Virus record (IMG/VR): IMGVR_UViG_3300031992_000025
Span: 1 to 33,931 of that record
Length of the DNA stretch: 33,931 nucleotides
Source of the DNA: a virus
Taxonomy: Duplodnaviria; Heunggongvirae; Uroviricota; Caudoviricetes
Reading direction: 5' to 3' (one strand)
The notes beneath the pieces were generated by a model. The model searched no databases. It was not told the DNA's origin and worked only from the letters and a program-made list of their open reading frames with translations. A program made the position numbers and the translations under genes. Shown here in pieces: positions 17,806-23,029 of this stretch (its first letter is position 1; each line of letters starts with the position of its first letter).

Positions 17806-17880
17806 TGCTAAATTAAATACAAAACAAGCCACTTAGACCAAATCTTGGTGGCTTTATTTTATTTATAATTGGCTAAATTT
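17806..17880 (+). promoter_or_regulatory. TGCTAAATTA (17806) and GGCTAAATTT (17871) flanking an AAGCCAC/GTGGCTT terminator hairpin, upstream of nrdD
   Basis: Motif copies and a 7-bp stem with T tail seen directly. Confidence 0.5.
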
Positions 17881-17946: not shown

Positions 17947-20127
17947 ATGACAGTAATTAAGCGTGATGGTAAAAAGGTAGACTTTGATGTCTATAAAATT
18001 AAAAAAGCACTGATTGGTGCTAATTCAAGATCTCAAGAGATGTCTGATGGTGACATTGAAAGAATTACAGAGATTGTTTTAAACAAATGTAATAAAGTAA
18101 CTGGAGATTTAAAAGTTGAAGAAATTCAAGATATTGTTGAAGATACTTTATTAAAAAGTAAGTTTAATCATACTGCAAAAGCATATATTCTTTATAGAGA
18201 CAAACGTACAAGAATCAGACAAGGCAAATCAAAACTTCTCAAAGAGGTTGGTGATAAGCTTATGGGTGTTCACATTGTTAATCAAAATGCTAATGTCGAC
18301 GAACGCTCATTTGGTGGTCGTAAAGGTGAAGCAGATAGCGTTTTAACTAAACAATATGCTTTAGACTACTGCATGTCCGAAAAGTCTAGAAATAATCATT
18401 TAAACAATGAAATTTATATTCATGACTTAGATGCTTATGCTGTTGGTATGCACAACTGCTTAAGTATTCCATTTGATGATTTACTAGCTAAAGGTTTTAA
18501 TACAAGACAAACTGATGTTAGACCAGCAAATTCAATTAATACTGCATTCCAACTTATTGCTGTAATATTCCAATTACAAAGCTTACAACAATTTGGAGGA
18601 GTTTCAGCAACTCACTTAGACTGGACAATGGTTCCATATGTTAGAAAGTCATTCTATAAACACTTTAATGATGGTGTTAAGTGACTCTATGAAGATGAAG
18701 ACTGTATAGAGCTTAAGCCAGATATGCCAATTGATGATGCTCAATATAAGTGGTCTGGTTGGGGCGATAAAATTTATAAATATGCTTTAGAAATGACAAC
18801 TAAAGAGCTAAAGCAAGCCGTAGAAGGTATGTATCATAACTTGAATACTCTTCAAAGTCGCTCTGGAAACCAATTACCATTTACAAGTATTAACTATGGC
18901 ACTTGCACTTTATTAGAAGGTAGAATGGTTATTAAAGCTTTATTAGAAGGCAGTCTAAAAGGTGTTGGTAAGTTACATCGTACACCAATCTTCCCGTGTG
19001 GCATCTTCCAATATATGAAAGGCGTTAACGATAAACCGGGAACACCAAACTATGATTTATATCAATTAGCACTAAAGTCAACAGCTAAACGTTTATACCC
19101 AAACTATGCTAATGTTGACTGGAGCAATAATGCTGGGTATGATAGAAATGATCCTAAAACCTATTTCTCAACTATGGGCTGCAGAACTGCCAATGGTGCA
19201 GACATCAATGCAGAGCCTGGTGTAAATCCACAAACAAAAGATGGTCGTGGAAATATCTGTCCAGTTACAATTATCATGCCAACATTGGCTATGGAAGCTG
19301 GTAGAGACGTTGAGAAATTCATGGCTTTACTTAATACAAAAATCCATGAAGCTAAAGATATGCTAATTGAAAGATATGAATATATCTGTAGTCAATGTGC
19401 TGATTCTGCTAAGTTTATGTATGAGAATGGAACTATGATGGGATATAAGCCAGAAGAAGGTATTAGAAGTGCTATGAAGCACGGAACTCTCGTTATTGGG
19501 CAAATTGCTTTAGCCGAGACTTTAGAGCTTTTAATTGGCAAAAATCAATGTACTCCAGAAGGCATGGAATTGGCAAAACGAATTGAGCAACTATTCAAAG
19601 ATAGATGCGCTGAATTCAAACAAAGATACCACTTGAATTTCGGCGTTTATTACACACCTGCTGAAAATTTATGCTATACAGCAATGAAGAAATTCAAAGA
19701 AAAATACGGTATAATAAAAAATGTATCAGATCGTGAATATTTTACAAATAGTATTCACGTGCCAGTTTGGGAAAAAGTATCAGCTTTTGAAAAGATTGAT
19801 ATTGAATCTCAATTAACTGGATATTCAAATGCTGGTTGTATTACTTATGTCGAATTAAGTTCAGCTGCAACTGGAAACTTAGAAGCACTTGAGTCATTAG
19901 TTAATTATGCAATGGACCATGACATTCCATATTTTGCAGTTAATATTCCAAATGATACATGCTTAGAATGTGGTTATACAGGCGAGTTCAATGATCATTG
20001 TCCAGAATGTGGAAGCCATAATATTCAACAATTAAGAAGGGTGACAGGGTACCTTACTGGAAATTATAAAACAGCATTTAACTACGGAAAACAAAAAGAA
20101 GTAGAAGATAGGGTGAAACATATTTAA
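17947..20127 (+). CDS. nrdD: Anaerobic (class III) ribonucleoside-triphosphate reductase with ATP cone, 726 aa in code 4
   Basis: ATP cone MTVIKRDG; HNC; TMGCR thiyl-radical loop; CLECG..CPECG Zn site; RVTGYL glycyl-radical motif; the two track ORFs are in frame across a single TGA (18682). Confidence 0.95.
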
Positions 20128-20789
20128 TGAAAAATTTAACATTTACTTGGAAAACACAATTTATCTTTAAATCATTATTAGCTGGAGTTTTAATTGCTTT
20201 AGCTGGCGGAACATATTTATCATGTGGTTCACTTATTTCAAATCCAGATTTAGCTAAGATAGTTGGTTCATTCTTATTCTCAATTGGACTCATTGCTGTA
20301 TTAATGCTTGAAGCAAACTTATTTACTGGCAAGGTTGGTTATATTGATAGCTGACATAAGTTTGGATTAGCATGTGCTTGCTTAATTTATAATTTGCTAG
20401 TTGCTTTCTTAATTGGTATGTTGTATAAAGGCATTAATTTACCTGGAGCAATAAGTGGTGGTCCATTTATTAGTCGATTAGATAAGCATTGGTATAAAAT
20501 GCTTGCTGATGGCTTCGGTTGTGGCGCATTAATTTATCTAGCAGTTGAGCTTTATAGAAGAACTAAAAATGTTATTCCAGTAATTATTTGTGTTATGGCA
20601 TTTATTCTTAGTGGAACTGAGCACTGTATTGCGGATGCTTTCTATTTAGGTGCATCACAATTATCTTGGAAAGCATTTGGTTATCTTTGGTTAGCAGTTG
20701 TAGGAAATTCACTTGGAGCAGCTGGTGTTCACTGGCTGCAAGTCGGAGCTGAGAGACTTAATGAGATACCTGACAATATACAAAGATAG
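20127..20789 (+). CDS. Formate/nitrite transporter (FNT, FocA family), 220 aa in code 4
   Basis: NLFTGKVG, FILSGTEHCIAD (conserved His), VVGNSLG, multiple TM segments; fragments in frame across TGA 20352; TAATG overlap with nrdD. Confidence 0.85.
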
Positions 20790-21288
20790 TATTTCTGATG
20801 GCCCAGGCGTAAGAGTTTCTGCTTATTTTGCAGGATGCTTGCCTAATAAGTGTGGAAATAAGAATTGCCCAGGTTGTCATAATCCAGAAGCTCAGAAGTT
20901 TACTGCCGGTGAAGAATACACAGAAGAAACAAAGAATTATATTTTAGGTCTTTGCAGAAATCCATATATTGCTGGTCTGACAATTTGTGGCGGCGAACCT
21001 TATGACCAAGATGAAAATCAATTAATTGAGCTTTTAAAGGCTTTTTATGAGCAAAACCCAAATAAAAATGTTTGAATTTATACAGGTTATGAATTTGAAC
21101 AGATTAGAAATAGGGAACTAACAAAATATATTGATGTTGCTGTAGTTGGACCATTTATCTTAGAGCAAAGAGATATTTCTGATGCTAATAGATGGCGAGG
21201 AAGTAGAAATCAAAGAGTTATAAATGGACCAAAATCTTTAAAAAGCGGTCAGATTATTTTCTTGGAAGATATACCAAATAATGAATAA
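20761..21288 (+). CDS. nrdG: Anaerobic RNR activating radical-SAM enzyme, 175 aa in code 4
   Basis: SDGPGVRVSAYFAGC...CPGCHN, GLTICGGEP, V-[TGA 21073]-IYTGY, RWRGSRNQRVI; GGAG RBS for ATG 20761. Confidence 0.92.
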
Positions 21289-21316
21289 CCATATCTATTG
21301 ATATGGTTTTTATTTT
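21288..21316 (+). terminator. Terminator after nrdG
   Basis: ACCATATC-TATT-GATATGGT followed by a T run. Confidence 0.75.
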
Positions 21317-21982: not shown

Positions 21983-23029
21983 ATGAGTGATAAGAAAAAT
22001 TTAGATTTAGCTAAGTTAAAAGCAGATGATGAATTCTATACTTCTTTTGCTGATATTGTCACAGAGTTATCTCACTGAACAAGTAAATTAAAAGATAAAA
22101 AAATTATTTGTCCATGTGATTTTGTTCCAACTAAAAAAATAAGCTCTATAACAATTGATTTTATTCAGAATAGATATTTTATTAATTCAGCTAAAAAGAA
22201 GGCTTCTGATACACCTTATTTTAATTTATTTGAGGATTTTGTAGTATCTGAGCCTGCAACTGAAATTTCTGAAAGCCAATTAAGAGAAATATTAGCTAAT
22301 CAAGAAGTAGTAAATTTTGTTAATTATTTATGAGCAGTCGGCAAAGAAGCTGGTATCAAATCTATTACAGCATCAGGCTATAATATTAAGTCTGGGCTTG
22401 GTGTCAGTTTTGATGAAATAGATTATAGCCAATATGATTTAGTTATTACAAACCCGCCATTTAGCTTGTATAGTTCATTTATGGAGTGCATCGGTGATAT
22501 TGATAAAATTATTATTGCACCATTTATGAACAGAGTTGCTCCATGTGTTGCTATTCCACTTATGGAAAGAAAAGCTTATTTAGGTTATGGAAGACATTTA
22601 GCAATGAATTTCAACAATCCAACTGGCGGTAAAGGTAAAAAGGTTGCAGTTGATTGGATTGTTTCTTGGTCTGATGCACAAGACGAAATAGACAAATTGT
22701 CCTGTAAAACTGGTATCAGATATGACATTTTGTCCTATAAAGACATGCCATATATGACAATGAAAGATGGAACAAAACCAATTAAAATTAATTCGGTTCA
22801 GCAAATTCCAGATGACTATAATGGCTATATGTTTACATCGGTTGCTGTTTTAGATAAATTAAGTTATAATGAGTTTGATTGGATTTGCACAGGTTGTAAA
22901 CGATATTTTAATAAAGAGCATCCAGAATTAAATCCATTTGCACATAATGTTTCAAATGAGATGATTGGGTATGGAACAGAAAATTCATGTTTTCATGGCA
23001 TTCTATTTAAAAGAAAGCGTATAATATAG
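21983..23029 (+). CDS. Orphan M.EcoRI-family adenine DNA methyltransferase, 348 aa in code 4
   Basis: NLDLAKLKADDEFYT...ELSH-[TGA 22076]...IICPCD...[TGA 22331]...DLVITNPPFSL; in frame with the 22466 ORF. Confidence 0.8.

Follow-up and report, generated by a model that had tools for sequence, protein, structure and literature searches.

A short FNT-family channel gene within a phage nrdD-nrdG operon as a probable formate conduit for anaerobic ribonucleotide reduction

Organisation of the nrdD-FNT-nrdG operon

Strict anaerobes and the phages that infect them obtain their deoxyribonucleoside triphosphates (dNTPs) mainly through the oxygen-sensitive class III ribonucleotide reductase (RNR), at the cost of one formate for each nucleotide. 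To our knowledge, the question of how this formate is supplied in a phage burst has so far not been addressed. Here we describe a 33,931-nucleotide stretch of DNA (hereafter the window; bases 1-33931 of the 146,538-bp IMG/VR virus record IMGVR_UViG_3300031992_000025, a tailed phage of the class Caudoviricetes, ~64% complete as estimated by CheckV) that carries a gene for an unusually short channel protein of the FNT family between nrdD and nrdG, the genes for a class III RNR and its radical-SAM activase (Table 1). The combined evidence of operon structure, conserved residues and genome context suggests that this minimal channel probably conducts formate or formic acid for the formate-dependent NrdD/NrdG system of the phage, aiding its dNTP supply.

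Table 1. Features of the nrdD-FNT-nrdG locus and one-carbon genes elsewhere in the same record (positions refer to the window unless marked "record")
Feature	Position	Strand	Remarks
Terminator-like hairpin with U-tract	17826..17854	+	-13.2 kcal/mol, z = -3.9 versus shuffles; closes the upstream unit
Candidate phage promoter word, GGCTAAATTT	17871..17880	+	67 nt ahead of the nrdD ATG
nrdD, 726 aa	17947..20127	+	TGA read as W246 at 18682-18684
Short FNT-family channel gene, 220 aa	20127..20789	+	TGA read as W76 at 20352-20354
nrdG, radical-SAM activase, 175 aa from ATG	20761..21288	+	TGA read as W at 21073-21075; frame open from TTG 20713
Terminator hairpin with U-tract	21287..21308	+	-12.8 kcal/mol, z = -5.6; immediately 3' of the nrdG stop
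ThyA, thymidylate synthase	record 107527-108330		outside the window
Fhs, formate-tetrahydrofolate ligase	record 112191-113798		NF010030, 747 bits (cut-off 652); no TGA
FolD	record 113869-114774		outside the window

Nearly all genes of the window, when read with TGA as tryptophan, lie on the plus strand. An earlier note on this DNA, made from the sequence alone, had placed the FNT gene between nrdD and nrdG, an arrangement borne out by both the open reading frame (ORF) calls and the family matches. Both gene junctions proposed there were also recovered: nrdD and the FNT gene share a TAATG (20124-20128), and the FNT gene overlaps nrdG by 29 nt (nrdG ATG at 20761, FNT stop at 20787-20789). Since the two hairpins with U-tracts flank the three genes, these appear to form a self-contained transcription unit. 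Judging from this layout, nrdD, FNT and nrdG are probably co-transcribed and translationally coupled. With respect to the candidate promoter, the window contains four matches to KGCTAAATTW (1.5 expected), two of which (17871 and 21316) sit just 3' of the terminator hairpins. At least four matches were reached in 13 of 100 shuffles, and the TGCTAAATTA-type word is thus not significantly enriched in the window.

Channel, reductase and activase

The FNT product matched the Form_Nir_trans profile (PF01226) with 77.6 bits (cut-off 34.6) over positions 20-232 of 240. Members of this family (TCDB 1.A.16) form homopentamers in the membrane and conduct monovalent anions or weak acids. The phage protein belongs to no PHROGs family, and a single weak tblastn match was obtained among 50,697 GenBank phage records. 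An AlphaFold2 monomer model built with 18 homologues (predicted local distance difference test score 89, predicted template-modelling score 0.85) displayed six transmembrane (TM) helices (residues 8-36, 40-60/66-72, 76-104, 122-146, 149-162/167-175 and 181-211), with TM2 and TM5 each split into two half-helices (TM2a/b, TM5a/b) and a pore in the center. The Foldseek comparison of this model with HSC, NirC, FocA and PfFNT (3TDO, 4FC4, 3KCU, 7E26) gave TM-scores of 0.75-0.79.

In the profile alignment, the FocA residues F75, L79, L89, T91, V175, F202 and H209 correspond to F51, L55, L65, T67, I136, F159 and H166 of the phage protein, all seven of which are invariant across 18 family members. The LFT (65-67) and EH (165-166) motifs are kept and the N-terminal extension is missing, just as the earlier note had read them. 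In fact, the entire FocA-type N-terminal domain (~25 residues) is absent, as the alignment begins at FocA residue 32 (profile position 7) and the phage protein begins ~7 residues ahead of TM1 in the model. In FocA this cytoplasmic domain gates the channel via PflB, while His209 and Thr91 are both needed for the proton-assisted uptake of formate and hypophosphite (PMC11841067). The phage protein missed both thresholds for FocA orthologues (TIGR04060, 55.2 bits versus 290.1; PRK10805, 23.5 versus 440) and, by these scores, is a member of the FNT family but not a FocA orthologue. Neither the profile nor the structure comparisons singled out one of FocA, HSC and NirC as the nearest relative.

The NrdD protein combines ATP-cone, NRDD and Gly_radical domains (TIGR02487, 499 bits with a cut-off of 326; phrog_487) with a TMGCR loop (409-413), a zinc ribbon of the CxxC...CxxC type (CLEC...CPEC) and the glycyl-radical motif RVTGY (698-702, G701). 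Its nearest solved relative is the P. copri NrdD (8p23, 413 bits), which requires formate, a property linked by its authors to strand 6, which has Asn435 in place of a third Cys (PMC11226230). The key residues of the phage enzyme are C171 (the bottom-face Cys), M410-G411-C412-R413 (with C412 as the thiyl Cys and Met two positions ahead of it) and N436, the latter aligned to this Asn435. By the third-Cys versus Asn distinction (drawn from PMC4493059 and PMC11226230), its residues are those of the formate-dependent class III type (NrdD1 or NrdDc-like), which agrees with the assignment originally derived from the TMGCR loop and is, like the latter, a reading of the sequence.

The NrdG protein scored just above the cut-off of its family (TIGR02491, 126.5 bits versus 126.1; phrog_626). 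Instead of the G-C-x3-C-x2-C pattern of its relatives, it has C-x4-C-x4-C-x2-C (window 20836-20877; residues 42-55 when counted from TTG 20713), which corresponds to an insertion of six residues that brings in one more Cys and may represent a variant cluster-binding motif. The same pattern is present in its nearest relative (locus L001 of the survey described below).

Distribution and genome context of short FNT genes

A search of IMG/VR with a short-FNT profile yielded 108 contigs, 80 of which were fetched for analysis of gene neighbourhoods. On the cellular side, a short FNT is encoded by at least 582 genomes of bacteria and archaea, from which 80 loci were likewise fetched. In the IMG/VR set, nrdD and/or nrdG adjoin the FNT gene on the same strand at 60 of the 80 loci. 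When the FNTs were grouped at 90% identity, 31 of the resulting 41 clusters were found beside nrdD/nrdG in one of three gene orders (nrdD-FNT-nrdG in 15 clusters, nrdD-nrdG-FNT in 13 and FNT-nrdD-nrdG in 3), and 10 were unlinked; NrdD is encoded elsewhere in the genome in 10 of 12 records of such "unlinked" FNT phages. In contrast, neither nrdD nor nrdG occurs within 5 kb of the FNT gene in any of the 80 fetched cellular loci (Fisher p = 2e-20 for phage versus cellular linkage). If placed at random in a genome of 150 kb, the genes would lie within 5 kb of each other ~9% of the time. All linked NrdDs with a readable loop contain MGCR (49/49), and all of those that could be read at the third-Cys site have Asn (57/57), including NrdDs only 29-31% identical to the one in the window. 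The survey of FNT synteny with nrdD/nrdG, suggested by the earlier note as a check, has therefore come out in favor of the linkage. A full-text literature search found no published description of a phage FNT with nrdD or of an FNT in purine operons, and a 2013 survey of phage RNR operons mentions no transporter.

Some genes of the surveyed loci depart from the usual length. The nrdD gene is split into 2-3 pieces spanning 3.1-4.3 kb in L005, L009, L044, L049, L055 and L069, and interrupted nrdD genes also occur in G055 and G030, the inserts of ~1 kb or larger being probably inteins or introns/homing elements; split nrdD genes are already known from cultured phages. The carriers of short FNTs include Oscillospiraceae, Ruminococcus, Acutalibacteraceae, Erysipelotrichaceae, Acholeplasmataceae and Methanomassiliicoccales. 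Open frames of 374-424 aa at four archaeal loci (L101, L115, L153 and L155; Methanomassiliicoccales/Thermoplasmata) suggest either an N-terminal fusion or an over-extended frame.

The observed linkage could, at least theoretically, reflect hitch-hiking, that is, the spread among related phages of an ancestral nrdD-FNT-nrdG block in which the FNT is functionally untied from its neighbours (serving, for example, in membrane conditioning or superinfection exclusion). Many of the 80 loci are indeed close kin (with NrdD 65-95% identical in most), and 15 of them fall into a single FNT cluster. On the other hand, the linked FNTs are just 30-50% identical and occupy at least four well-supported separate places among cellular FNTs, their pore residues are invariant, the genes occur in three orders, and very different NrdDs (29-31% identity; L006, L022 and L023) are also accompanied by an FNT. 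Phage members are interleaved with cellular ones at several well-supported positions of a maximum-likelihood tree, which comprised 111 FNTs and came from a quick search with a short protein, so that long-branch placements such as that of L022 are unsafe. For example, the FNT of L051, which represents an entire phage genome bounded by terminal repeats, clusters with those of Acholeplasmataceae (support 98) and the FNT of L023 with those of Oscillospiraceae and Methanomassiliicoccales (support 95), while the FNT of the window falls in a mostly viral clade. Forcing all viral FNTs into a single clade costs 247 log-likelihood units (p = 3e-5 in the approximately unbiased test). The polyphyly of viral FNTs together with the three gene orders points to selection on the linkage rather than to one inherited cassette, and the FNT-nrdDG association so appears to have arisen or been kept repeatedly. 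Overall, we consider hitch-hiking very unlikely.

Hints at the substrate came from the gene neighbourhoods in cells. In gut Clostridia, the short FNT gene is inserted between purM and purN (454 bits on TIGR00878 and 199 bits on TIGR00639, respectively), usually with overlapping stop and start codons; this arrangement accounts for 23 of the 80 fetched loci. A ZMP/ZTP riboswitch, the type that reports a shortage of 10-formyl-tetrahydrofolate, was detected upstream on the same strand in each of the 14 purM-FNT-purN loci tested (48-69 bits versus a gathering threshold of 39), at ~2.8 kb from purM and ~3.8 kb from the FNT gene. Other loci associate the FNT with formate activation. Thus, positions 2-2095 of L084 contain a partial fhs, a 125-aa ORF, a short FNT gene and folD, the last two overlapping, and in L137 the FNT gene and fhs are 1.4 kb apart. 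L084 is a 5.6-kb contig binned as "bacterium" that could be cellular or phage; its three identified products match their phage counterparts (Fhs, FNT, FolD) with 50-53% identity, and its FNT is among the cellular FNTs nearest to that of the window.

The phage record itself encodes Fhs, FolD and ThyA (Table 1), while no pyruvate formate-lyase (PFL), class I/II RNR or PurN was found in its 146 kb. Fhs is present in 6 of 22 nrdD-linked FNT-containing phage records (this phage, L004, L005, L007, L019 and L029), and no fewer than three FNT clades are represented among these six. Fhs is absent from the 10 unlinked FNT-containing records, as well as from 23 records with NrdD and no FNT (6/22 versus 0/23, Fisher p = 0.009). 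Because the Fhs-FolD-ThyA route also uses formate, NrdD is probably not the sole formate consumer in this phage. Taken together, the purM-FNT-purN operons with their ZTP riboswitches, the fhs/folD neighbours, the Fhs-FolD-ThyA set of the phage and the formate type of its NrdD make formate the likely substrate, which would serve both ribonucleotide reduction and thymidylate synthesis.

Several observations weigh against this interpretation. The sequence and fold scores of the phage protein to FocA, HSC and NirC are nearly equal (55, 49 and 43 bits, with the range of TM-scores given above), the conserved pore residues do not separate formate from nitrite, hydrosulfide, lactate or bicarbonate, and N172 and N213 of FocA are replaced by Gly133 and Asp170. 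The cellular FNTs closest to the window clade (L084 excepted) have housekeeping neighbours, which are uninformative on the substrate, and the Fhs co-occurrence comes from few, partly related genomes. Among the 80 closest phage relatives of NrdD, an FNT is found within 4 kb in just 21, making the channel a frequent accessory rather than a fixture or a requirement. Finally, NrdD has a lineage-specific C438 (codon 19258-19260) two residues past the diagnostic Asn (GNICP), which is Ala in some relatives and is probably not catalytic.

The first of these observations would be accommodated by a genuine FNT channel with a different substrate (nitrite, hydrosulfide, lactate, acetate or bicarbonate), whose link to nrdDG might lie, for example, in pH or CO2/bicarbonate handling. 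A match to the FNT bicarbonate channel LCIA (9v2a), the substitution of the two FocA Asn residues, the release of CO2 by NrdD and its consumption by purine synthesis past PurM are all compatible with this possibility. However, every informative context contains a formate consumer (a formate-type NrdD, a riboswitch-run PurN operon or fhs/folD), Fhs co-occurs only with FNT-containing phages, and the commonest neighbour families include no nitrite or sulfite reductase genes. A non-formate substrate is therefore unlikely in our assessment.

A comparison of translation tables 4 (TGA as Trp) and 11 confirmed another observation of the earlier note, the single in-frame TGA in each gene of the cassette, as table 11 breaks each of them exactly once (at the codons listed in Table 1). 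The further proposition that the module is specifically "code-gated" had to be rejected. Over the entire record, 147 in-frame TGA codons were counted versus 483 TGG (~3.5 TGA per 1000 aa), about one third of the ORFs (53 of 161) contain TGA, and simple arithmetic from this background rate gives a chance of ~1 in 4 that nrdD, FNT and nrdG would all carry at least one. A single TGA in each of them is thus unremarkable. The sites are not conserved either: nrdD of L001 contains no TGA at all, and the same holds for the FNT genes of L002, L004 and L005. The codons found opposite the three TGAs in relatives are TGG or, at the NrdD and NrdG sites, those for Tyr or Phe, which favors the reading of TGA as Trp over Gly. 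None of the tRNAs detected in the 146 kb of this incomplete record has the anticodon UCA, which is not evidence that such a tRNA is absent. Outside the window, a block of 38 tRNAs (record 44089-62212) does not contain it either, despite the 147 in-frame TGA codons; an odd tRNA at record 48045-48118 has a 6-nt anticodon loop and was called by ARAGORN as Asn/Stop.

Among other genes of the window, the product of 11979-12878 matches the N-terminal domain only of S-adenosylmethionine synthetase (44.6 bits), and 21983-23029 encodes an EcoRI-like adenine methyltransferase (75.6 bits) with two TGA codons. The remaining ORFs flanking the cassette mostly have no Pfam or NCBIfam match.

A model of formate supply and its relation to known systems

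The linkage to nrdDG, the formate-type NrdD, the ZTP/pur operons and the Fhs-FolD-ThyA set support the idea, already put forward in the earlier note, of a phage-controlled formate flux for anaerobic dNTP synthesis, with formate as the presumed substrate and import as its presumed net direction. According to this model, the FNT channel would let formate or formic acid pass through the membrane of the host. Inside the cell, NrdD would oxidise one formate for each ribonucleotide reduced, and Fhs-FolD-ThyA would take up one more per dTMP, in the form of its methyl group. These two sinks would draw down cytoplasmic formate and create an inward gradient, so that an ungated mini-channel could admit external rumen or gut formate free of host regulation. 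Such unregulated uptake is suggested by the retention of the Thr/His pair combined with the loss of the PflB-gated N-terminal domain.

The demand may be considerable. Taking a genome of 244 kb (34% T), a burst size of 100 and a cell volume of 1 fL as assumptions, we estimate it at ~6.5e7 formate molecules, or ~100 mM of cell volume, which is far above a millimolar pool. The breakdown of host DNA would meet only a small share of this formate-linked demand.

FNT channels are bidirectional and FocA exports formic acid in fermentation (PMC11841067), so the phage protein might instead act chiefly as an efflux valve dumping host-made formate or acid during infection. This seems highly improbable to us given that the neighbouring NrdD and the phage Fhs consume formate, that the phage record has no PFL, and that the His and Thr needed by FocA for uptake are invariant, while efflux-only variants lack this His (PMC11841067). 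A bolder extension of the import model would have the ungated FNT dock on NrdD (mirroring FocA-PflB in the consuming direction) and channel formate both to ribonucleotide reduction and to thymidylate synthesis by Fhs-FolD-ThyA, thereby setting phage DNA synthesis free of host formate metabolism and ZTP-riboswitch control; we regard this extension as unlikely.

If the import model is true, a phage channel dedicated to the small-molecule reductant of RNR would add a new kind to the known auxiliary metabolic genes, and the productivity of rumen and gut phages would be tied to extracellular formate, a key interspecies electron carrier that is also sought by methanogens. The short FNTs (180-225 aa) represent a naturally minimised version of the fold for structural and mechanistic study. 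The purM-FNT-purN parallels, in turn, suggest a broader role of the mini-channel in gut Firmicutes, where it would generally import formate for the synthesis of nucleotides.

Of the characterized systems, FocA (from E. coli, Salmonella and V. cholerae; 3KCU, 3Q7K, 3KLY, 9G49) shares with the phage FNT the aquaporin-like fold of six TM helices, two of which (TM2 and TM5) are broken, the Thr of the Omega loop, the His of the S loop and the constrictions formed by Phe, Leu and Val (or Ile), as well as the association of its gene with a glycyl-radical enzyme handling formate. The phage protein differs in being ~60 residues shorter, with a short TM3-TM4 loop and without the PflB-binding N-terminal domain. 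Moreover, the partner of FocA is the formate-producing PflB, whereas that of the phage channel is the formate-consuming NrdD. The FNTs of the clostridial purM-FNT-purN operons (L098-L154) belong to the same compact subfamily (35-40% identity, ~200 aa, the same invariant pore residues) and also accompany nucleotide synthesis that needs formate-derived units. Unlike the phage FNT, they are cellular, riboswitch-regulated and devoted to purine formylation, and none of them is near nrdD/nrdG. A reductant supply encoded beside a phage RNR has precedents in the T4 thioredoxin NrdC and in the glutaredoxin-like NrdH of phage nrdIEFH operons, but those are soluble redox proteins serving class I RNRs, while the cassette described here combines a membrane channel with a small-molecule reductant. 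Finally, the NrdD-NrdG pairs of P. copri, T4 and E. coli (8P23, 1H78) have in common with the phage pair the ATP-cone, the Cys171-equivalent, the MGCR finger loop, the Asn at the third site, the zinc ribbon and the glycyl-radical motif, along with an activase encoded alongside the reductase. Even so, the phage NrdD is only ~40% identical to the nearest solved enzyme, and its NrdG is set apart by the 6-residue, Cys-containing insert.

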